Origin: Gemmatimonadales bacterium | Lineage (GTDB): Bacteria; Gemmatimonadota; Gemmatimonadetes; Gemmatimonadales; GWC2-71-9 | Assembly: GCA_041613315.1 (NCBI GenBank) | Contig: JBFJHJ010000048.1 | Location: 1 to 11,350 of the forward strand | DNA length: 11,350 nucleotides | Direction: 5' to 3' | Shown here: positions 1-11,099 of the stretch, piece after piece | Numbering within the stretch: the first letter of the stretch is position 1 | Layout of the letters: each line of letters opens with the position of its first letter | The notes under the pieces: generated by a model | Database searches by the model: none | What the model was told of the DNA's origin: nothing | Seen by the model: only the letters and a program-made list of their open reading frames with translations | Program-made: the position numbers and the translations under genes

Positions 1-725
1 AGGCGGGTGATCTCGTTGACCGACCGTCCTTCGTCATGGAGCGCGCGCACGCGGTCACGCAGCGACACCAGGTAGTCCAGCTTGGCCCCGATCGCGGCCT
101 TGCCGTCGGTCAACACGCCGCGATGGGCGCAGAACAGGGTGGCGAAGTCGAGCCGGAGCACGTGCCGCAGGCTCGCGATCGTCTCGTCCACGTCCTCGTC
201 GGCCCGCAGGAACCGCGGCTTGCTGGCGATGTAGAGATCGCCGCAAAACAGCCACCCGCGGTCGGGCTCCAGGTACGAGGTCGAGTCGGGCGAGTGGCCG
301 GGCGTGGGAACGGCGCGCAGCGCGAGACCGCCGTCCAGCTCCACGACCTCGGGCACCGCCTCGGGGGTGAACCGCACCGGCTTGCCCCACACCAGCCGCT
401 GATATGGGCGGAGCCGAAACCCGTCGCGCATGGGTTCGATGCCGGCCGCCGGGATGGCGACCCGGGCGTTCCACTCCCGCGCCACGCGCCCGCCGTTGCC
501 GCTGTGGTCCTCGTGGTGATGCGTGAGTAGGACCCGGCCCACCTGCCGTTCGGCCAGGAACCGCCGGACCTTGGCCCATTGGTTGGGCGGCCCGGTATCG
601 ATCACGGTCGTGCCCAGGCGGTAGACGATGCACGCCGTGCTGATCCCGCCGCCGAAGCGGCCCACCCGGAGCCCCTCGACGGTGTCGTGCGTGAACCGGG
701 GCGCTGGAAGGTGAGGGGGGGTCAC
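1..725 (-). CDS. MBL-fold metallo-hydrolase (glyoxalase II-like), 3' end truncated by window edge
   Basis: Translated by hand (not in the ORF track because it has no stop in the window). GTG at 725 gives MTPPHLPAPRFTHDTVEGLRVGRF...VIDTGPP...LLTHHHEDHSGN...TPGHSPD...LFCGDLY...FCAHRG. All MBL motifs are present (DTG, HxHxDH, GH, GD, terminal H). An in-frame upstream TGA at 753-755 limits the start. Confidence 0.92.
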   Translation of the reverse strand, partial: MTPPHLPAPRFTHDTVEGLRVGRFGGGISTACIVYRLGTTVIDTGPPNQWAKVRRFLAERQVGRVLLTHHHEDHSGNGGRVAREWNARVAIPAAGIEPMRDGFRLRPYQRLVWGKPVRFTPEAVPEVVELDGGLALRAVPTPGHSPDSTSYLEPDRGWLFCGDLYIASKPRFLRADEDVDETIASLRHVLRLDFATLFCAHRGVLTDGKAAIGAKLDYLVSLRDRVRALHDEGRSVNEITR

Positions 726-934
726 GTGAGGCAGTGAGGCCGGCGCTCGTCGTCAGGGTGCGTGCCCGCAAGGTAAGGGGCGGGCCCCGGTGGCACCAAC
801 GCGACCGCAGCGAGAGCGTCGGGCCTCGAGGAACGACCTCGGGCTGGACCGGACGGGCTGAATTGACCAGGTTAGGGGGACGACGATCGCCCGGGCGCTG
901 CCCAGCCTGTCGCCACGGGCGAGGGAGGTGCAGC

Positions 935-1183
935 ATGCGCGACGAGCTTCCGTATACGGTCGACCGCATCAGCGCCGACGACGCGGTCCTCCACGATGAC
1001 GAGCGCCGCGAAGTGCGGATCCCCCGGCGCTCCCTCCCCCACGGCCTCAGCGCGGGCACGGTGGTCCGCGTGCCCGTGATCGGCGGGCGGCCCGATTGGT
1101 CGCTCGCCCGCATCGACCGTATCTCGACCGAGCTCCGCTTCCAGGAGGCGGCGCCGAGAGTTCGGGAGCCGGGACGGGAGTGA
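935..1183 (+). CDS. DUF3006-like small protein (82 aa)
   Basis: ATG 935 follows a strong RBS, GGAGGT at 924-929. MRDELPYTVDRISADDAVLHDDERREVRIPRRSLPHGLSAGTVVRV fits the DUF3006 pattern (VDR...AVL...P...LP....G.VL). The ORF-track extension to 734 looks non-coding. Confidence 0.7.
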   Translation: MRDELPYTVDRISADDAVLHDDERREVRIPRRSLPHGLSAGTVVRVPVIGGRPDWSLARIDRISTELRFQEAAPRVREPGRE

Positions 1184-1187
1184 ACGA

Positions 1188-1224
1188 GTAAACGGCGGCG
1201 CAGGGTCCGACGCCCGCCGTTTGC
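1188..1224 (+). terminator. Hairpin just downstream of the DUF3006-like gene, possible terminator
   Basis: GTAAACGGCGG (1188-1198) pairs with CCGCCGTTTGC (1214-1224) with one G-U pair. The U-run is short (TTT). Confidence 0.4.
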
Positions 1225-1249
1225 CCCGGCCCGGCACCCCGTTTACACT
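1221..1249 (+). promoter_or_regulatory. Putative sigma70 promoter for the FKBP gene
   Basis: TTGCCC (1221-1226), a 17-nt spacer and TACACT (1244-1249), about 110 nt upstream of the FKBP start. Confidence 0.6.
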
Positions 1250-1356
1250 TCCCCACCGATCCAGCCACTGACCGGTGACGGCGGCCCGGGATCCGCCCGG
1301 GCCCCCGCCGATGCATGCCGCCGCTCTGCGGCCGCCCCAACCCAAGGATGAATGGA

Positions 1357-2052
1357 ATGCGATCCCACCGTACGATGCTGACGTTCGCTTGCGTCGCGCT
1401 CCCCCTTACCGCGTGCGGCGGGGGCGGCACGCTCGCCACCTTCCAGGACAGCGCGAGCTACGCGATCGGCATGAGCATGGGCAAGTCCCTCGAGCCCGTC
1501 CAGGACTCGGTGCGTCTCGCCCGCGTGGTCCAGGGGCTGATGGATGCCGCCGTCGAGGGCCGCGAGCCCAAGCTCGCGGAGCGCGAGTTGAGCGCGATCC
1601 TCGGCCGCTTCACCACCGAGATGCGGGCGGCCGACGCCACGGCGCGCGATTCCAAGGCCACGAAGAACCGCACCGAGGGCGACGCCTACCGTGAGAAGAA
1701 CATGGCGCGCGCGGGCGTGACGACCACGCCGAGCGGCCTCCAGTACGAAATCCTGACCGAAGGGACCGGCGCGCGGCCCACGGCGACCGACCGCGTGCGG
1801 GTCCACTACCGCGGTACGCTGGTGGACGGCAAGGAGTTCGACAGCTCGCACGAGCGGGGCGAGCCCGCGACGTTCGCGGTGAACGGGATCATCCCGGGCT
1901 GGGGCGAGGCGCTCAAGCTGATGCGCGTGGGCGGCAAGTACCGGCTCGTGATCCCGCCCGAGCTGGGGTACGGCGCGCAGGGCGCGGGCCGCGACATCGG
2001 CCCCGACGCGACGCTCATCTTCGAGGTGGAGTTGTTGGAGATCGTGAAGTAG
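1357..2052 (+). CDS. fkpA: FKBP-type peptidyl-prolyl cis-trans isomerase (FkpA/Mip family), lipoprotein
   Basis: FKBP_N region (SASYAIGMSMG) and FKBP_C region (SGLQYEIL, VRVHYRGTLVDGKEFDSS, IIPGWGEAL, IPPELGYG, LIFEVELL). Signal peptide ends in lipobox LTAC. ATG 1357 was chosen from AAGGA at 1344-1348; alternative starts are 1348 and 1375. Confidence 0.95.
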   Translation: MRSHRTMLTFACVALPLTACGGGGTLATFQDSASYAIGMSMGKSLEPVQDSVRLARVVQGLMDAAVEGREPKLAERELSAILGRFTTEMRAADATARDSKATKNRTEGDAYREKNMARAGVTTTPSGLQYEILTEGTGARPTATDRVRVHYRGTLVDGKEFDSSHERGEPATFAVNGIIPGWGEALKLMRVGGKYRLVIPPELGYGAQGAGRDIGPDATLIFEVELLEIVK

Positions 2053-2069
2053 AACCGTCGCAGCCCGCG

Positions 2070-2123
2070 TTCCCCTCTTCCTTCCGGGGTGAGGGATGGG
2101 GAGAGGGGGACCGGGGGCGAGGG
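2070..2123. repeat. REP-like palindromic element between convergent genes
   Basis: TTCCCCTCTTCCT (2070-2082) pairs with GGGGAGAGGGGGA (2098-2110) and is followed by GGGGGCGAGGG. This resembles the widespread CCCTCTCCC..GGGAGAGGG..GGGGTGAGGG extragenic repeat. Single copy in this window. Confidence 0.55.
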
Positions 2124-2124
2124 C

Positions 2125-2961
2125 TTATCGCTCCGGCGCCGCCACGACCCTATTCCGAAGCACCCCCACGCCTTCCAGCTCGACTTCCACCACGTCGTCC
2201 GGTCGCATCGTTCGCGTGGTGCCCGGCGTGCCCATGAAGATCACGTCGCCCGGCAGGAGCGTGACGTAGCGGCTCACGTAGCTCACGATGGCCGCCACGT
2301 CGAAGATCAGGTCGCGCGTCCGCTCCGATTGGCGCACCTCGCCGTTTACCCGGGTCTGGAGTCGCAGGTCGTCGTAATCCAGCCCGCGCACGATCGCGGG
2401 GCCGATGGGCCCGAACCCGTCGGACGCCTTGGCGCGGAACCACTGGAGATCGTCCCGCTGCCACCCGCGCTCGCTCACGTCGTTCCCCGCCGTGACGCCG
2501 AAGACGTAGTCCCGCGCCTCCGCGACCGACACGTTCCGCGCCCGCTTGCCGATCACGACCACCATCTCGCCTTCGTAATGGAGATCGGCGGCGTCGGCCG
2601 GGATCACGATGTCCGTGCCCGTCCCCACAATCGACGTGGGGTACTTGGCGAACAGCCCGGGATACTCGGCCGGGGCGCGGTCGCCCAGATGGCTCCGGAA
2701 GTTCAATCCCACCGCGATCACCTTGGACGGCTCGCACGGCGCCAGGAGCCGCACCGCGGTGAGCGGCACCCGCCGGCCCGTGGCACGGTGCTCGCCGAAC
2801 AGGTCGCCGGCCAGCTCGCGCACGGTCCCGCCCTCCAGGATGCCGTACGCCGTCCGGCCCTGGTAGGCATAGCGCACGTAAGCGGTCGGGCTCTGTGCCG
2901 GAACAGGCGTCGCGACCGCCAGCAGAGCAAGCGTCGTGATCACTCCGGTATGACTGGTCAT
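2125..2961 (-). CDS. Fumarylacetoacetate hydrolase family protein (N-terminal DUF2437-like region plus FAH domain)
   Basis: Motifs PSKVIAVGLNF, HYEGEMVVVIG, NDVSERGWQ, KASDGFGPIGP and LLPGDVIFMGTP. RBS GGGAG lies shortly upstream of the ATG on the minus strand. Confidence 0.95.
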   Translation of the reverse strand: MTSHTGVITTLALLAVATPVPAQSPTAYVRYAYQGRTAYGILEGGTVRELAGDLFGEHRATGRRVPLTAVRLLAPCEPSKVIAVGLNFRSHLGDRAPAEYPGLFAKYPTSIVGTGTDIVIPADAADLHYEGEMVVVIGKRARNVSVAEARDYVFGVTAGNDVSERGWQRDDLQWFRAKASDGFGPIGPAIVRGLDYDDLRLQTRVNGEVRQSERTRDLIFDVAAIVSYVSRYVTLLPGDVIFMGTPGTTRTMRPDDVVEVELEGVGVLRNRVVAAPER

Positions 2962-2998
2962 CGCGGGGCTCCCAGGTCGAGGTCTCGGAACAACGCGC

Positions 2999-3490
2999 TC
3001 AGCGCTCGAGGTAGCGCGCCAGCGCCTGCCAATGTCGAACGTCCCAGTACTTCTTCGCCGCTGCCGACGTGGACGGCAGCACGAACACGGCGCTGTCGCC
3101 CAGTCGCTCCCGCACCCGTCCGTAGCCGACCCGCGTGCGGCCGAGCCCAGCCTTCGCCGCGTTCTTGCCGTTGAACGCCACCACGCGCGGCGCGAATCGC
3201 AGGATCTTGTAGCGGAACCCGTGGACGTCGTACGCCTCTACCGGCAGCTGGGCATCCGTGCCCGACGCCCGTTTGACCACGTCGGTGAGCCCGATACCGA
3301 AGTGCGTCACCTCGCGGAATTCCTCGGGCGCCAGCTCGCGCCGCGTGAGCCCCACCGCGTGCAGCACCGGCCAGAAGCGGTTGCCGGGGCCGGCGTAATA
3401 GCAGCCGCGCCGCGCGGATTCGGGGCTCGCCGCGGTGCCGCAGAAGACGACCGCCAGGCCGGGTTCCAGGATGTCGGGGAGCACCGCCAT
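2999..3490 (-). CDS. mug: G/U mismatch-specific DNA glycosylase (UDG family 2, Mug-like)
   Basis: MAVLPDILEPGLAVVFCGTAAS..YYAGPGNRFW..GIGLTDVVKR..AFNGK..VLPSTS. ATG 3490 gives 163 aa, a typical Mug length. The ORF-track extension to 3682 overlaps the divergent gene. Confidence 0.93.
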   Translation of the reverse strand: MAVLPDILEPGLAVVFCGTAASPESARRGCYYAGPGNRFWPVLHAVGLTRRELAPEEFREVTHFGIGLTDVVKRASGTDAQLPVEAYDVHGFRYKILRFAPRVVAFNGKNAAKAGLGRTRVGYGRVRERLGDSAVFVLPSTSAAAKKYWDVRHWQALARYLER

Positions 3491-3629: not shown

Positions 3630-4178
3630 ATGCACCGTCTCGCCTTTGCGTTGCTTGTCACGTCGGCCGCCTCCTGTTCCACCTTCGCCGACCCCCCGCT
3701 CCCGGCGGACCAGCGGTTCCTATTCGAGGTGGAGTACGTGAACTACGCCTGGGGCTTCTCCTGGCACGGCACGGTGATCGACCGGACCGGCGTCGTGGCG
3801 CGGTACGACCTGGGCGATGGTGAGCCCTGGCCTCATAGCGACAAGGAAACCGTCACCGAGGCGCAGCTCCTCCAGAAGTACAACCGCGGCCGCGAGGTCG
3901 TGGGCCAGGTGGACCGAGGAGACCTGCTCGACGCGTTCGGCCTCGTCGGCACCGCGGCGCGTGGCGAGCTCGAGGGCCCGCTCGACCGCTGCCGGGACGC
4001 TGGTGGCTTGAGCTTCCGCGCGTTCCAGTACGATCCCGTGACCGAGTCGTACCATCCCGTTCTCCTGCGCACGGAGGGCGATTTCGCGTGGCGGAACCGG
4101 GCGGCCGCCGCCACCACGCTGTACCGTTGGCTGGCCGAGGTCACCAAGACGAGCGCCGACGGCGGCTGCGCCCCGTAG
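3630..4178 (+). CDS. Hypothetical lipoprotein (182 aa)
   Basis: RBS GGAGGT at 3616-3621 and ATG 3630. Signal MHRLAFALLVTSAAS-C with a lipobox-like end. Globular-looking sequence (FEVEYVNYAWGFSWHGTVID...CRDAG). Family not recognised. Confidence 0.8.
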   Translation: MHRLAFALLVTSAASCSTFADPPLPADQRFLFEVEYVNYAWGFSWHGTVIDRTGVVARYDLGDGEPWPHSDKETVTEAQLLQKYNRGREVVGQVDRGDLLDAFGLVGTAARGELEGPLDRCRDAGGLSFRAFQYDPVTESYHPVLLRTEGDFAWRNRAAAATTLYRWLAEVTKTSADGGCAP

Positions 4179-4453
4179 CGGCCGCCGTGACCCGTCGCTC
4201 ACCACCACTACCGGATCGGTCCGTTTCCCCCTCCTGGCCCCGGCCCGGCGACCATGCGTCGTCGCCGCTCGAATCCCGACACTTGCCGGCGACGCCGCTC
4301 GGATGTCCCAAATCCGACCCCTCGTGCCCCATGACGGGCCTGTCGGCGGCTGGGACGAGTGCGTAGCTAGAGAAGCAGTCCACGCCGCATCGCATCTGAC
4401 CCCGGGGTTCCAGCTCGCCGTGGGGTTCCCGCTCCTTGAACCGGAGGACGGAC

Positions 4454-6097
4454 ATGGTCATGCCCCGAAGCGTCCTGGTGTGCACCGCCATCAGCCTCAC
4501 GATCGCGTGCGTCGACTCGTCCGGCGGGGGGGGACTCGCGGACGAGGGCACCTGCGCCGGTGTGTTCCCGAGCTACTGGCAGGACCCGGATACGACGTTC
4601 CGTCCGATGTGGCGCGGCCAGACGATCAGCAATACGCCGCCCGAAGGGTGGAGCGGCCCCGTGTTCCGACTGAGCGACGCCTATCCGACCGAGCGGCAGG
4701 ACGACGCTGCCGCCCAGCCGTGGCGCAACGCCCGCTTCGACGCGCTCTTCGACCCCGCGACCGACCCGGCCACCAAGACGGCGCTCGCCCGTGACTACGC
4801 GTGGGCCGTGATGCGGTACATCCAGGACGGCAACATCGGGAGCCGTGACGTGACCGCCGACTGGACCCTGTGCAACAACCCCGTCCGCCCCTGGTTCCAC
4901 ATGCCGTTCCAGACGTACGACGTGATGAGCGGGCGTGAGTTCGCGCATGGCCTCACCCGCGAGGCGCCCGTCGCCTTCAGCGTGAAGGCACCGGGCCACC
5001 CGGATGCCAGCATCACGATCAACGGCACGATGTGGGCCGTGGGGTTCTACAACGCCACGGGCGCCTATACGATCGGGCGCGTGTGGAAGCCCGACGGTCG
5101 GGCCGAGGTGCCCACCGACAATCTGAGCTTCGATGAGGGCACGGTCGTCGGCAAGCTGCTGTTCAGCACCGCCACGCCGGCGCAGCTGCCGATGCTCGCC
5201 AACATGCCGGCCTGGCGGGCGAACATCTCCGACCCGGCCTTTTGCGCGTGCGACGCCGGGCCGGGGAAGAAGTGCACGATGATCGAGGAGAGCCAGCAGT
5301 GTGCGCGCAGCAGCGATGCCTGGGGCCCCGTGCGGTTGTTGCAGTTCGACATCGCCGTGAAGGACCACCGGGCGCCGGTCACCGAATGGGTGTTCGGCAC
5401 GTTCGTGGCCGACGGTCAGCGCAAGGCGGGGGAAGCGAATCCGTGGAATCGGATCTCGCCGCTGGGCCTGATGTGGGGGAATGACCCGCCGCCGGCGGGC
5501 GGGCTGGCGAGCGCTTACCCCGCCGATCCGCGGCAACACGGCTTTCCCGGTGCGGTGATCTTCTGGGAGACGGTCGACATGCTGAATGCCGCGGGTGGAG
5601 CGATCGCGTCCAAGCGGCCGGGCCACTTGGGCTGCAACAACCGGCTGAACGGGCCGGCGGACAACGCCAACAGCTCGTGTCTCTCGTGTCACATGACCGC
5701 CTCCGTGCCGGACCGGCAACGGCACACACCACCCATCATCGCGCAGTTTCAGCGCGGCATCACGCACGAATGCGTCACGCCTATGGCGTCGCGGCCGGAC
5801 AGCGGGACCGATGCCACCGGCGCGCCAAGCACCGTGCGGAATGGCATTCCGTTCTCCGGAATGGACAGCCTCTTCTTCGCCAACATCGCAGCGGGCCAAC
5901 CGGTGAACATGACGTGGCGGGGCAGGAACGTCATTCCGCCGCCCGAGTACACCGCGGGTCGTCCGACGGCGTGGCGCGCGCTCGACTTCTCGTTGCAGCT
6001 GTCGGTCTCGCTCACCCAATGGAAGGAATGGCAAGACGATCAGGCCGGCTCCGGGCAGGCGCCCCGGGTGTTCACCGGACTGCTGCCTGCCCGCTGA
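4454..6097 (+). CDS. Large monoheme c-type cytochrome lipoprotein, cytochrome P460-like (547 aa)
   Basis: RBS GGAGG at 4443-4447 and ATG 4454. Lipobox TIA-C. Single CxxCH (CLSCH, 5678-5692). P460-like motifs FDEGTVVGK (5129-5155) and DIAVKDHR...WVFGTF (5348-5404). The CDS itself is secure; the P460 fold is inferred. Confidence 0.75.
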   Translation: MVMPRSVLVCTAISLTIACVDSSGGGGLADEGTCAGVFPSYWQDPDTTFRPMWRGQTISNTPPEGWSGPVFRLSDAYPTERQDDAAAQPWRNARFDALFDPATDPATKTALARDYAWAVMRYIQDGNIGSRDVTADWTLCNNPVRPWFHMPFQTYDVMSGREFAHGLTREAPVAFSVKAPGHPDASITINGTMWAVGFYNATGAYTIGRVWKPDGRAEVPTDNLSFDEGTVVGKLLFSTATPAQLPMLANMPAWRANISDPAFCACDAGPGKKCTMIEESQQCARSSDAWGPVRLLQFDIAVKDHRAPVTEWVFGTFVADGQRKAGEANPWNRISPLGLMWGNDPPPAGGLASAYPADPRQHGFPGAVIFWETVDMLNAAGGAIASKRPGHLGCNNRLNGPADNANSSCLSCHMTASVPDRQRHTPPIIAQFQRGITHECVTPMASRPDSGTDATGAPSTVRNGIPFSGMDSLFFANIAAGQPVNMTWRGRNVIPPPEYTAGRPTAWRALDFSLQLSVSLTQWKEWQDDQAGSGQAPRVFTGLLPAR

Positions 6098-6159
6098 GAC
6101 AGCGGCGCCGGCACCGGGCCGCGGAGCCACGTGACCTCGATTCAGCTGGGAGGACGGCC

Positions 6160-7842
6160 ATGAGTGGATTGACGCGACGGGGGTTTCTCGCGACCGCAGG
6201 CGGCGCGATCATGGGTGTCGCTCCCGCCGGCCCCGCGATCGCCTGCACGCCTCGGCGGCCGGGACCGATCGACCGGGAGTGGGTCCTCGACGTCGCGTGG
6301 CTCGAGACCGCCATCGCGGGCACGCGGGCGAGGCTGCGCACCTACAACGGCGGCGTCCCGGGTCCGCTGCTCGAGGCACGACCCGGCGACACCGTTCGCG
6401 TCCTGTTGCGCAATCACCTCACGCCCTACGACTCGTCGGCCTGGAGCGGCGATCACAACGTGCCGCACCTGCTCAACACGACCAACCTCCACCTGCACGG
6501 GCTTGAGATCGTCCCGCACCTCTTCGAGCCGGTCGGCACCGCCGATCCCGGCGCCGCGATGATCGCGATCCCGCCGGGCGGCGAGAAGGAGTACGTCTTC
6601 CGGATCCCCGAGGATCAGCCGCCCGGGTTCTTCTGGTACCACCCGCATCACCACGGCTCCACCGCCGTGCAGGCCGTGAGCGGCATGGCCGGCGGCCTGA
6701 TCGTCCGCGGCGAGCTGGACGAGGTGCCCGAGATCAAAGCGGCGCGGGAGATCGTGCTCGCGCTCCAGGACATCGGCCTCTTTCGCAGCGAGACGGAGCC
6801 CGACCTCTGGATCTACGAGCCTCGGCAGAACGCCATCTGGGACACGCTGAAGAGCACCGTACGCATGGACGGCCGCCCGACCGACCTGAAGGGCGGCTTC
6901 ACCATCGGCGACTACCAGCGGCGCTACTACCTCGTGAATGGGCGCCCCTACTTCCATGAGGAGCACAACGCCCACACGCCCACCGAGCCGATCGGGAGGC
7001 CGCTCGGCCCTCCCCGCTACTCGTTCCGACCGGGCGAAGTGGTGCGGTTCCGCATCCTCAACGGGAATTCGGACAACCTCATGCCGCTCGCGGTCGAGGG
7101 GCACGAGATACACCTACTCGCGCTCGACGGCGTCAACTTCCCCGCGCCGAGAACCATCCCGGCCCCCGATGCGTCCTCCGCGGGCGAGGGCGCGGCCCAG
7201 CTCCTCCTCGCGCCCGCCAACCGCGCGGAGTTCCTCATCAAGGCCAACGCACGGCGCGGGGTCTACCGCCTCGTGCAGCGCGCGCAGCGCCAACAGTTCC
7301 TGCACAGCGCGTTCAAGACGATCGCCGGGTTCGTCGTCGAGGGCGCCCCGAAGGACATGGCGCTCCCCACGACGCTGCCGATCCCGCGTCGGCACTACCC
7401 GCTGATCGAGGAGCGCGAGATCACGAAGCGCCGCAGCGTGACCTTGAGCGCCCGGTTCCCCGGCCAGCTGAACCCGGTGATCGGCATGGACCTGATGGTC
7501 AACGGCACGCTCTATGACGAGCGGTCGGTCGCTGACGACTGGATCACCGATGTCGGGTCGGTGGAAGAATGGCACCTGCGCGTACCCGACGAGGCCCATG
7601 GCGGGAACGAGGGACACCCGTTCCACATTCACGTCAACTCCTTCGAGGTTCACTCCGTGGGCGGCGCGCCGCAGCCGGCGGGTACGCTCCAGGACACGAT
7701 TTGGGTGGCGCAGAACAGCGACGTGATCATTCGCATGAAGTTTCGGGAGTGGCGCGGGAAGTCGGTCTTTCACTGTCACATCTTGCCCCACGAGGACACC
7801 GGCATGATGCGGAACTTCCTCATCCGGCCGCCTCAGGGGTGA
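6160..7842 (+). CDS. Tat-exported three-domain multicopper oxidase (560 aa)
   Basis: RBS GGGAGG at 6148-6153 and ATG 6160. Tat motif TRRGFL. Copper motifs HLH (6490-6498), WYHPH (6634-6648), HPFHIH (7615-7632) and HCHILPHEDTGM (7771-7806, with T1 axial Met). Confidence 0.96.
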   Translation: MSGLTRRGFLATAGGAIMGVAPAGPAIACTPRRPGPIDREWVLDVAWLETAIAGTRARLRTYNGGVPGPLLEARPGDTVRVLLRNHLTPYDSSAWSGDHNVPHLLNTTNLHLHGLEIVPHLFEPVGTADPGAAMIAIPPGGEKEYVFRIPEDQPPGFFWYHPHHHGSTAVQAVSGMAGGLIVRGELDEVPEIKAAREIVLALQDIGLFRSETEPDLWIYEPRQNAIWDTLKSTVRMDGRPTDLKGGFTIGDYQRRYYLVNGRPYFHEEHNAHTPTEPIGRPLGPPRYSFRPGEVVRFRILNGNSDNLMPLAVEGHEIHLLALDGVNFPAPRTIPAPDASSAGEGAAQLLLAPANRAEFLIKANARRGVYRLVQRAQRQQFLHSAFKTIAGFVVEGAPKDMALPTTLPIPRRHYPLIEEREITKRRSVTLSARFPGQLNPVIGMDLMVNGTLYDERSVADDWITDVGSVEEWHLRVPDEAHGGNEGHPFHIHVNSFEVHSVGGAPQPAGTLQDTIWVAQNSDVIIRMKFREWRGKSVFHCHILPHEDTGMMRNFLIRPPQG

Positions 7843-7946: not shown

Positions 7947-10900
7947 ATGCGCGCAACTTTGGCAATTCCCCTGCTGGCGACCGCCGGCGCGACGGCGATC
8001 GCCGCGTGTGGAGGGGACGGCCCAACGCAGCCGCCCGGCGTGGCCTCCGTCCAGGTCACGCCGGCCACCGCTGCCCTCGCAGCCATCGGCGAGACCGTCC
8101 AGTTCAGCGCCACGCCGCGAGACGCGCAAGGGAACCCGGTGGCGGGGAAGACGGCGAGCTGGTCGTCCGCACCCACCGCGGTGGCCGGCATCGATCAGGC
8201 AGGCCTCGCCACCGCGGCGGCGAACGGTTCCAGCACGATCACGGCGACGGTGGACGGGAAGACCGGAACGGCGACGTTGACCGTGACCCAGCGGGGCGAC
8301 GCCCTTCGCATCGCCACGCATCCCGCCGGCGCGTCGGCCGGGCGGCCGCTCACCACGCAGCCCGTCGCGGAAATCCTCGACGCCCGGGGCAACGTGGTCA
8401 TCAACGACAACACGACGACCGTGACGGCGAGCATCGCCTCCGGCGGAGGAGCGCTCGCGAGCGCCGTGGCGACGGCCAGCGCGGGGGTTGTCACGTTCAC
8501 CGAGCTCGCCGTGAACGGACTCGTCGGCGAACGTGCGCTGCGCTTCGCCGCCGAAGGCCTGGTCGAGGCCGTGTCCGACCCGTTCACGGTGACGCCGGGA
8601 CCTGCGGACCGACTGGCCCTGGTGGCAGGGGACGCCCAGGTCGGCCTTGCGGCGATGACGCTGCCGACGCCTCTCTCGGTGCGCGTCACCGATGCATTCA
8701 CGAACCCCGTCGCCGCGGTGGACGTGTCATGGACCGTCACGACCGGATCCGGCGCTCCGTCGGCCAGCACGACGCCGTCCGAGGCCGATGGCATCGCGGC
8801 CGTGAGCTACACCCTGGGGCGGTTCGCCGGCGACGAAGCCGTCGAGGCGTCGACGACGGGCCTGAACGGCTCGCCCGTCGTGTTCCGCGCCACGGCAACC
8901 CCGAATGGGACGATCCGCGGGACGTTGTCGCTGGGGGCGGGCGGCGCGGCTCCGGCCGCGGCGCACAAAGTCTCGGTGGGCGGAGCCGCGCTGCAACGGC
9001 CCGCCTCCGGCAAGCAGCTTGCGCCGCGCGTGAGCGCCGCCTCCGGGATCGCGCGCAACCCGGTTGCCCCCGCGCCGCCCGCGTACACCCCCGACGAGCT
9101 GATCGTCACGTTCCACCCAACGGCCATCGGAGCGCCTCGTATTGGCGCCCAGGCCCACGCGTTCGCGGCGACGGCCGAGCGCACCGCCTCGTCCATGCGG
9201 GCCGCGCTCGCGCCGCATCTCGATCCGGAGCGTGCACGGCTGCGCGGGACGTCACCGGCGATCCTCGCGGCGCGGATCGCGGCCGCCGACGTTGGCCGGC
9301 TCGATGTCCTCGCCGCCGAGCTTCGCGCGAACCCGGCCGTCGCGCGGGTCGAGCGGAATGGGATCGTGCAGCTGGAAGCGCCACGCGCGCTGACCGATGC
9401 CGCCCGGTCCCGACTCCCCAACGACCCCCTCTACGTGTGGCAGGCGTGGCACTACGCCATGGCTGACCTGCCGGAAGCATGGACCCTGACGACAGGCGAT
9501 GCGACGGTGCTCGTCGCCGTCGTGGACGACGGGATCCGCTTCGACCACCCGGGCGTCGCAGCCAATCTCACGAGCGATGGGTACGACTTCGTCTCGGACC
9601 TGACGCTCCCGCTCTGCGCCGGCGGCGACATCAGCAACGCGGGCGACGGCGACGGATACGATAGCGACCCGACGCAGCCCGCGGCTTACGCGTACAACGG
9701 CACCTGCGTGGGCGGCCTGCTCGCCTCGGGCAATCACGGACTGCACGTCGCCGGCACCATCGGTGCGGTCGGCAACGACGCCGCGGGCGGCGCCGGCGTG
9801 AACTGGACGGTGCGCATCAGGCCCGTGCGCGGGCTGGGCGTGGCGGGGACGGGGACGAACTACGACCTGGCACAAGGCGTGCTGTACGCCGCGGGCTTGC
9901 CGGCCGACGACGGCGCGGGCGGGACCGTGCAACCCGCGGTGGGCGCCCGCGTCATCAACGCGAGCTTCGGGGGGGGTCCCTCCACCGTGATGGAGAACGC
10001 CGTGCTTGCCGCGACGAACGCCGGCGCCCTCATCATCGCGGCAGCCGGGAACAGCGCGTCCACCACCCCGCTCTACCCGGCAGCGTACCCCCAGTCCCTC
10101 TCGGTCTCGGCCGTAGGCCCGGATACCCTTCTCGCGTCGTACTCGAACTACGGAACGACGGTGGATGTCGCGGCGCCCGGCGGGGATCTGGGTGACGGGG
10201 GCGCCGACTTCGGGGTGATCTCCTCGGCGTGGGACTTCACGACGAGCACGGCGCTGTGGGACGCCTGGCAGGGGACCTCCATGGCGGCGCCACACGTCTC
10301 GGGAGTGGCGGCGCTCGTGCTCGCCCGCGATCCCGGACTCACGCGCGACCAACTCCGGGCACGGCTCGAGGATTTCGCCGTCGACATCGGACCCGCCGGC
10401 CCCGACAACCAGTACGGGCGGGGCCTCGTCAACGCGCGCAACGGCCTCACCCAGAGCCTGGCGCCACCCCGGGCACTTTACGCCCGGCTCGTCGACGCCA
10501 CGACGGGGGCGTCGGTCGCGACCGCCACGGCCGCCCCCGACGGCACGTACGAGTTCCGCGAGCTGGGGGACGCCGACTACTACGTATACGCCGGCCAAGA
10601 TGCCGACGGCGACGGTCTCGTGGGGGTAGCGGGTCGCCGGTGGGACGCGTTCGGCGGGGCACCGGCCCCCAGCGCGCTCACGATCAACGGCGCCGGGACC
10701 ACCACGGCGAGCTTTTCGGTCGGGCTGCCGCGCGAAGTGGAGGGCAACGACTCGTTCGGCACCGCCGACGCCCTACCCGTGGGCGGCTACATGCTGGGCG
10801 CGATCGCCGACCCCGCGACCGACGCCGACGTGTACCGGGTGCGGGTGCCGAGCCAGGGGACGTATACGTTCGAGACCTCCGCGAACGACGGCGCCTGTGG

Positions 10901-11099
10901 GTTCGCGCTCGAGGAGGACACGATCCTCCAGCTGTTCGACGAGACGGCGACCCTGCTGGCCGAGCATGACGACGTGGACCTGGACGGGAACAACTTCTGC
11001 TCGCGGATCAGCATGAGCCTCGGCGCCGGCACGTACTTCATCGCCGTCTTCGGATGGTACGGCCGACCCTATCGCCTTACGGTGCGGGCCGGGAGCTGA
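7947..11099 (+). CDS. S8 subtilisin-like serine peptidase lipoprotein with N-terminal Ig-like domains and C-terminal PPC-like domain (1050 aa)
   Basis: ATG 7947 follows GAGG. Lipobox IAA-C. Big_2-like domain (VASVQVTP...WSS...G.ATA...TITAT). Catalytic triad: D (VAVVDDG, 9525), H (HGLHVAGTIG, 9735) and S (GTSMAAPHVSG, 10278). Oxyanion-hole AAGN. C-terminus EVEGNDSFGTA...DADVY...DTILQLFD is PPC-like. Confidence 0.95.
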   Translation: MRATLAIPLLATAGATAIAACGGDGPTQPPGVASVQVTPATAALAAIGETVQFSATPRDAQGNPVAGKTASWSSAPTAVAGIDQAGLATAAANGSSTITATVDGKTGTATLTVTQRGDALRIATHPAGASAGRPLTTQPVAEILDARGNVVINDNTTTVTASIASGGGALASAVATASAGVVTFTELAVNGLVGERALRFAAEGLVEAVSDPFTVTPGPADRLALVAGDAQVGLAAMTLPTPLSVRVTDAFTNPVAAVDVSWTVTTGSGAPSASTTPSEADGIAAVSYTLGRFAGDEAVEASTTGLNGSPVVFRATATPNGTIRGTLSLGAGGAAPAAAHKVSVGGAALQRPASGKQLAPRVSAASGIARNPVAPAPPAYTPDELIVTFHPTAIGAPRIGAQAHAFAATAERTASSMRAALAPHLDPERARLRGTSPAILAARIAAADVGRLDVLAAELRANPAVARVERNGIVQLEAPRALTDAARSRLPNDPLYVWQAWHYAMADLPEAWTLTTGDATVLVAVVDDGIRFDHPGVAANLTSDGYDFVSDLTLPLCAGGDISNAGDGDGYDSDPTQPAAYAYNGTCVGGLLASGNHGLHVAGTIGAVGNDAAGGAGVNWTVRIRPVRGLGVAGTGTNYDLAQGVLYAAGLPADDGAGGTVQPAVGARVINASFGGGPSTVMENAVLAATNAGALIIAAAGNSASTTPLYPAAYPQSLSVSAVGPDTLLASYSNYGTTVDVAAPGGDLGDGGADFGVISSAWDFTTSTALWDAWQGTSMAAPHVSGVAALVLARDPGLTRDQLRARLEDFAVDIGPAGPDNQYGRGLVNARNGLTQSLAPPRALYARLVDATTGASVATATAAPDGTYEFRELGDADYYVYAGQDADGDGLVGVAGRRWDAFGGAPAPSALTINGAGTTTASFSVGLPREVEGNDSFGTADALPVGGYMLGAIADPATDADVYRVRVPSQGTYTFETSANDGACGFALEEDTILQLFDETATLLAEHDDVDLDGNNFCSRISMSLGAGTYFIAVFGWYGRPYRLTVRAGS

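Follow-up and report, generated by a model that had tools for sequence, protein, structure and literature searches.

Characterized P460 enzymes are small and oxidize hydroxylamine. Here we examine a locus in an 11,350-base contig of a Gemmatimonadales bacterium (JBFJHJ010000048.1, C48 in our numbering; this entire contig is what we call the window), part of a 2.6 Mb genome of 82.9% completeness, in which a gene for a 547-aa heme protein, P0001, is followed by a gene for a multicopper oxidase (MCO), P0002. Like cytochrome P460 (N. europaea 2JE2, M. capsulatus 6HIU), cytochrome c'-beta and the PF16694 domain, the P0001 family has a predicted beta-sheet fold and one CxxCH motif and, like cytochrome P460, it carries a Lys and a carboxylate at the positions of Lys70 and Glu96. 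Cytochrome P460, however, is about 150-190 aa long (solved chains 135-196 aa) whereas family members measure 400-600 aa, mostly 450-550 aa and so about three times that size, with large conserved insertions; P0001 lacks a PF16694 match; and the family is linked to an MCO and nucleoside enzymes, P460 to nitrification or methane oxidation. In the accessible portion of a 2025 P460 review (PMC11928373), Table 2 lists Lys70 and Glu96 as required for P460 activity, enlarged members are unmentioned and the terms 'electron acceptor' and 'redox partner' are absent.

The bacterial laccases (Thermus thermophilus laccase 2XU9, CueO, CopA and PhsA) share with P0002 three cupredoxin domains, a full ligand set with an axial Met and export by the twin-arginine (Tat) pathway. 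The P0002 clade differs in that its usual neighbor is a heme protein, not copper-resistance genes, and P0002 scores far under every NCBIfam cut-off, including those for CueO, CopA and PhsA. Two described systems resemble the pair as a whole. The anammox protein BpMHAO likewise unites an MCO module with a heme enzyme that handles hydroxylamine, yet, in the part of the preprint available to us (bioRxiv 10.64898/2026.07.28.741245), it is a single chain with a small-laccase-type domain, a multiheme fold like that of hydroxylamine oxidoreductase (HAO) and reported hydroxylamine reductase activity, whereas in the window the MCO has three domains, the heme protein has a predicted monoheme P460 fold, and each is encoded by its own gene. 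The Nitrosopumilus MCO Nmar_1354 also couples oxidation of a nitrogen compound to O2 reduction but, as presented in the accessible text (PMC11761707), acts on NH2OH alone, with no heme partner. Lastly, PuuD, as described in the available text of PMC4562309, resembles the system proposed here in using a heme c protein for purine catabolism without forming H2O2, but it belongs to the DUF989 proteins, is integral to the membrane, carries a class I cytochrome c and has an unrelated fold; the PF06181 membrane domain of PuuD is absent from both P0001 and P0002.

A literature search, whose coverage excluded subscription papers and supplements, found neither the enlarged family nor its pairing with an MCO nor the link to nucleosides described; the original prediction, made from the sequence of this locus, likewise named no described system with this pairing. 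We regard the pair as real and as an apparently undescribed form of P460 chemistry, equipped with an oxidase that is a candidate for a dedicated partner. The family brings to the P460 field conserved catalytic positions, a candidate partner and a candidate pathway, and it opens two questions, namely what else a P460 heme can oxidize and what accepts its electrons, for which two soluble proteins suffice.

The enlarged heme protein and its predicted docking to the oxidase

P0001 itself has no Pfam, NCBIfam or PDB sequence match, and PDB sequence searches with P0001 and the family profiles A1 and A3 returned nothing meaningful. Scoring of 7,998 candidates yielded 771 relatives, and the family comprises 751 representatives at 50% identity, the majority of which are annotated as hypothetical, although NCBI names one relative a 'cytochrome P460 family protein'. 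The likeness to P460 draws on a predicted fold, on weak PF16694 matches in relatives and on aligned catalytic positions. With the AlphaFold2 model of P0001 (pLDDT, predicted local distance difference test, 84.8) as query, Foldseek ranked chains of P460 and c'-beta at the top, although not significantly (best E 0.022). When the Foldseek-ranked chains, and only these, were structurally realigned, the top 17 rows were all P460 or c'-beta (Z 5.2-6.8; root mean square deviation 2.9-4.8 over 124-150 aligned residues) and the next row had Z 3.1; the caution line of the realignment tool is Z 8, below which a match can mean merely a common arrangement. In agreement with this, 34 of 47 close homologues have weak PF16694 matches (best E 4.3e-4; P0001 has none) and two distant family members pass the 27-bit cut-off.

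To place the active site, 12 small PF16694 domains were aligned, one of them (L212) was tied to N. europaea P460 (2JE2), and profiles were compared, the family giving a weak match to small PF16694 (hhalign probability 28.7%, E 6e-4). By this alignment the distal carboxylate position (Glu96 / Asp102 of P460s) would be occupied by Asp299. Because the predicted fold, CxxCH, Lys234 and Asp299 agree, we assign P0001, by predicted fold and motif, to the P460 superfamily, where its size makes it atypical; the original prediction of a P460-like gene product therefore holds at the level of modeling and alignment. By analogy with Lys70, Lys234 may be cross-linked to the heme. The roughly 300-400 extra residues contain invariant polar positions that include Arg161, Glu162, Glu170, Gln297, Arg397 and Asp403.

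P0002 matches PF07732, PF00394 and PF07731, all over cut-off, and among solved structures a Thermus-type laccase is closest to it (E 2e-45). The T1 His-Cys-His-Met set and the eight T2/T3 His are all invariant among 47 homologues, and P0002 reaches none of the NCBIfam cut-offs (bits against cut-off: CueO 97/525, CopA 77/479, PhsA 60/950, NirK 32.9/296.3), which bears out the earlier view of a complete, laccase-type ligand set distinct from that of NirK. P0002 belongs to an MCO clade of its own, formed at 50-67% identity. That both products are exported, also proposed originally, agrees with our by-eye reading of a lipobox-like Cys19 in P0001 and a twin-arginine leader in P0002.

A complex of P0002 (residues 38-557) and P0001 (57-532), predicted from alignments that we supplied, passed with a score of 0.68 (runs 0.43, 0.68 and 0.69), the best control scoring 0.00. 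Of the solved complexes, 116 of 157 attain this mark, as do 2 of 215 mismatched pairs; both proportions are only rough here because the alignments were our own. The runs agreed on at least 88% of contacts and pLDDT was at least 84 for the partners. At the core of the predicted contact, the P0001 hairpin 174-190 lies against an edge strand, 42-51, of MCO domain 1, and on this model we consider direct binding of the two proteins probable. The original prediction had electrons passing from heme to MCO; docking is indeed predicted, but since the interface names neither a T1 ligand nor a heme-motif residue, the contact reads as a docking site, and transfer from heme to copper stays hypothetical. 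The hairpin segment is at least 21 residues long in 36 of 42 MCO-linked rows compared to 8 of 65 unlinked rows, a difference that is suggestive only because it is confounded by descent (six linked rows are short and most of the long ones belong to one clade).

Linkage between the heme family and the oxidase clade

Seen from the MCO, the pairing is common. Among the best 80 of at least 486 confirmed metagenome MCO loci, 39 have a member of the wider heme family within 6 kb. When the metagenome loci were pooled with seven genome stretches (four of them from genomes reached via the heme family) and clustered at 90% identity, 34 of 58 clusters held a family member, as did 22 of the 30 clusters with at least 1.6 kb of flank on both sides. 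The two genes are on the same strand in 43/43 loci and no more than 400 bp apart in 39/43, with stop and start touching in some. Neither is frequent in genomes at large: the heme family occurs in 3/400 Gammaproteobacteria (seed included), 19/301 Myxococcota in an even sample and 0/60 relatives of the window's genome, and the MCO clade in 4/301 and 1/301 genomes of two other groups. Adjacency is therefore non-random and, from the MCO side, far over background, and the gene pair turns up repeatedly in different bacteria. All five MCO-clade genomes tested contain the heme family, unlinked in three, although two of the five had been chosen via the family. In a FastTree tree of 143 family rows, from which duplicates and near-copies were excluded, MCO-linked members fall in at least four separate subclades, the window's protein lying outside the main one.

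Seen from the heme protein, the pairing is rare, which counts against the model set out below. Only 4 of 72 close-homologue genome loci have an MCO within 6 kb. Three of these are myxobacterial operons in which the MCO belongs to the P0002 clade, one of the three being broken or partial; the fourth, from Aliikangiella, carries an MCO of a different clade. The P0002 clade is present in only 5 of 50 close-homologue genomes. Because linkage is usual on one side and rare on the other, the MCO clade tracks the heme family and not the reverse; the pairing is real but asymmetric, and the heme family needs no MCO. The conserved adjacency by which the original prediction was to be judged thus stands for the MCO and fails as an obligatory property of the heme protein. 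Fusion of the family to an MCO, the other arrangement it had raised, was seen in none of 21 long proteins scanned nor in a search of longer proteins, the latter being weak evidence. We consider it very probable that heme protein and MCO, as a pair, form a functional unit.

In the Myxococcales loci L061, L064 and L066, the run consists of a fused xanthine-dehydrogenase-like enzyme, a distant paralogue of the heme protein, the MCO and a close homologue, such that one MCO (broken or partial in L061) is flanked by two heme proteins.

Substrate class, proposed mechanism and rival explanations

Neighbor counts in what follows are floors, because at some loci genes escaped our automatic picking; proteins for the Pfam neighbor scans were picked by hand (67, 57 and 29 in three rounds). 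The 58 MCO clusters include 11 with a nucleoside hydrolase, eight with a fused single-chain xanthine-dehydrogenase-like enzyme and three with a phosphorylase-like protein, the usual order being hydrolase, heme protein and MCO in one run. Nine of the 72 close-homologue loci (six of the nine from Undibacterium) have a nucleoside hydrolase of a second clade immediately upstream, confirmed by Pfam in three and via profile and clustering in the others; a DNase II, an RNase T2, an S1/P1 nuclease and a PLD-family enzyme each adjoin once, and a phosphoesterase is downstream in four. Three of the 21 long proteins scanned carry the family domain behind a secreted nuclease (S1/P1 plus endonuclease I; endonuclease I; EEP nuclease). 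P0154 joins a UvrD part to a family domain, but it looks like the product of read-through, and we left it out of the fusions. In all 15 rows of linked dehydrogenases, the glutamate of the GGKE motif (Glu802 in bovine numbering) is replaced by Thr, while seven other myxobacterial xanthine dehydrogenases (XDHs) with no family member within 1.5 kb retain Glu; on the only plasmid that carries the Thr-variant type, the dehydrogenase adjoins a family member. Eight viral contigs (L201-L208) carry the heme gene, with CxxCH intact in all four that were translated, and those scanned have ThyX or dCMP deaminase just upstream of it; annotated phage records gave no match to the family. Because of these neighbors and the nuclease fusions, the evidence points to nucleic-acid or nucleoside catabolism rather than to the hydroxylamine or metal ions among the substrates named in the original prediction.

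Several of these neighbors merit description in their own right. The Thr-variant enzyme is a single-chain molybdenum hydroxylase of ~1,400-1,550 aa (L149:1520-5728, L019:395-4690, L185:7586-11845) that in this analysis occurred only beside the heme family or the MCO clade. Three loci unrelated to one another (L113:3006-4124, L135:1136-2257, L198:401-1468), the last from a randomly drawn genome, have a divergent phosphorylase-superfamily protein (weak PF01048) encoded immediately before the heme gene. In three marine Gammaproteobacteria (L010, L014, L018) the gene directly upstream encodes a DUF2278 protein, which may have a nucleic-acid-related function. On Rhizobium plasmids (L226:4938-9432, L227:4878-9388), the family member is accompanied by a GMC oxidoreductase, a ferritin-like protein and a further small protein, which could possibly provide alternative redox partners. 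In a myxobacterium (L233:1-1446), the gene immediately upstream of the family member encodes a protein of an unannotated 480-aa family, listed in the atlas as 'cytochrome c family protein'.

Our model, which we hold as a plausible but tentative account, is that a P460-fold enzyme oxidizes a nitrogen-containing breakdown product of nucleic acids or nucleosides and that the MCO passes the electrons to O2. The exported heme protein would form a Lys-cross-linked P460-type heme; a pocket built by the insertions would bind the nitrogen-containing product of nucleic-acid breakdown; and, with Asp299 serving as base, the heme-bound substrate would undergo a P460-like, proton-coupled oxidation. Where present, the docked four-copper MCO would accept electrons from the heme at its T1 copper and reduce O2 to water. 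Since most family members lack an MCO and must use another acceptor, the MCO would be a dedicated acceptor but an optional one. A narrower version, in which the pair is an undescribed extracytoplasmic nucleoside/nucleobase oxidase with a giant Lys-cross-linked P460 hairpin-docked to a dedicated O2-reducing MCO, is possible but doubtful. If true, this narrower version would extend P460 chemistry beyond hydroxylamine for the first time, name an electron acceptor for a P460-fold enzyme for the first time, and supply a missing step in environmental DNA/RNA recycling, carried by phages too.

We infer the substrate class from context, and it is the weakest step of the mechanism. Other observations also speak against the model. 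The fold match is middling on all three measures (Z 5.2-6.8, below 8; Foldseek E; hhalign probability and E), and the interface residues named sit on MCO domain 1, without a T1 ligand or a CxxCH residue. The window's own neighbors are a subtilase and an unknown lipoprotein, and the nucleoside hydrolase, phosphorylase-like and fused dehydrogenase partners are all absent from its genome, at the completeness given above. In the 18 non-seed Myxococcota genomes, no MCO, nucleoside hydrolase, phosphorylase-like protein or fused dehydrogenase was found within 1.5 kb, and no nuclease was found among the scanned neighbors of the Myxococcota sample. An MCO is present at 0 of 12 plasmid loci viewed, where the neighbors include peptidases, amidohydrolases, GMC oxidoreductases and defense-type genes, with one dehydrogenase and one endonuclease a few genes off. 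Phage nucleotide genes cluster regardless of the family. Finally, the nucleoside hydrolases and dehydrogenases have no obvious signal peptide and would therefore act in another compartment than the exported pair. The nucleic-acid theme is thus patchy across the family and absent at the window locus, and the family may hold more than one function.

Other explanations account for part of these data. A true P460 that detoxifies hydroxylamine or an N-oxide (NH2OH to N2O or NO) and is reoxidized by the MCO, the reading closest to the original prediction, would explain why the Lys and carboxylate needed by P460 are conserved in the family; moreover, in the portions of the sources available, P460 requires an outside oxidant (PMC11928373 section 22), an archaeal MCO oxidizes NH2OH unaided (PMC11761707) and anammox bacteria have a protein in which MCO and HAO are fused (bioRxiv 10.64898/2026.07.28.741245). 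We nevertheless regard it as unlikely: no recurrence of nitrogen-cycle genes was seen among clustered or scanned neighbors, HAO was not found in the window's genome, ammonia monooxygenase was not found in five genomes (a search without a positive control), the extra residues with their many invariant polar positions suggest a pocket for a larger substrate, and the nuclease fusions are left unexplained. If instead the two enzymes merely shared a pathway, the MCO oxidizing a separate intermediate and docking just holding the enzymes together, the edge-strand contact on MCO domain 1, in which no T1 or heme-motif residue is named, would fit, as would the loci where a dehydrogenase lies between MCO and heme gene or the MCO is unlinked. 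This, too, seems improbable to about the same degree, given that a P460-type site needs an oxidant, which an O2-reducing MCO supplies, and that residues unnamed by the tool may yet touch.

The very patchy distribution, on plasmids and phages, and the variety of neighbors (S8, S10 and S41 peptidases, lipase, GMC oxidoreductase, TIR proteins) suggest another possibility, that the family is one of many secreted enzymes on mobile accessory islands, its nucleic-acid neighbors incidental and its substrate unrelated; the failure to find nucleoside enzymes in the Myxococcota sample is consistent with this. Yet two unrelated nucleoside hydrolase clades, a phosphorylase-like family, four nuclease families adjoining the heme gene and three nuclease fusions converge on one theme, and the partner profiles gave 0 matches within 1.5 kb of 15 small PF16694 loci, so that we think such a coincidental association quite improbable. 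A far more remote idea is that the pair substitutes for a missing urate oxidase, as the neighboring xanthine-dehydrogenase-like enzyme and nucleoside hydrolases might suggest and for which PuuD, a cytochrome c urate oxidase in the accessible text of PMC4562309, is a precedent. We rejected this role because the window's genome has PuuD itself, on contig C25, beside an HIU hydrolase, an OHCU decarboxylase and an allantoinase-like amidohydrolase. PuuD is present in 4 of 6 purine loci examined, OHCU decarboxylase occurs in only 27 of 54 genomes, and the linked dehydrogenases have Thr where the seven other myxobacterial XDHs have the GGKE Glu. Oxidation of a nucleic-acid breakdown product with the MCO as optional acceptor remains the reading we prefer.

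Anatomy of the locus and its surroundings

The gene arrangement given in the original prediction (co-oriented genes 62 nt apart, a strong ribosome-binding site (RBS) for each and a shared 275-nt leader) agrees with the coordinates and with the GGAGG-type sites at both starts (Table 1). No sigma70-like promoter was found in the leader. The absence of a U-tailed terminator between the genes was likewise recovered, but it is weak evidence because the scan gave none anywhere on the + strand of the window; on the - strand, three were seen against 3.3 expected by chance. GC content at third codon positions is 0.89 in gene 1 and 0.90 in gene 2, the same as in the adjoining genes.

Table 1. Coordinates of the heme protein/MCO locus in the window.
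Position	Strand	Feature	Remarks
4179..4453	+	Intergenic leader	275 nt; ends in GGAGGA RBS
4454..6097	+	Gene 1, P0001	547-aa enlarged monoheme protein of predicted cytochrome P460/c'-beta fold; likely lipoprotein (Cys19)
4973..5023	+	Beta-hairpin 174-190	predicted to dock onto MCO domain 1
5153..5155	+	Lys234	aligns with Lys70, cross-linked to heme in N. europaea P460; Lys in 143/143 rows
5348..5350	+	Asp299	aligns with Glu96, distal and catalytic in N. europaea P460; Asp in 142/143 rows
5678..5692	+	CxxCH (Cys409, Cys412, His413)	single heme c motif, after the sheet; 142/143 rows
6098..6159	+	Spacer	62 nt; RBS and small GC hairpin, U tract absent
6160..7842	+	Gene 2, P0002	560-aa Tat-exported three-domain MCO; distinct uncharacterized clade
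6283..6312	+	MCO N-terminal strand 42-51	core of predicted interface
6490..6648	+	His111, His113, His161, His163	T2/T3 copper ligands
7615..7806	+	His486, His489, His491, His538, Cys539, His540, His544, Met549	copper ligands; Met549 axial

Downstream of the MCO, after 104 nt, lies a secreted subtilase with Ig-like and PPC domains (7947-11099, +), for which no conserved link to the heme/MCO pair was seen. Upstream of the pair is a 182-aa probable lipoprotein (3630-4178, +) with no Pfam or NCBIfam match, preceded by genes of housekeeping type (1-3490: an MBL-fold hydrolase, a DUF3006-like protein, an FKBP isomerase, a member of the FAA hydrolase family and a G/U mismatch DNA glycosylase). Elsewhere in the same genome, a separate small PF16694 domain is encoded on contig C41 (4242-4526; L218), and cytochrome c maturation genes are present.

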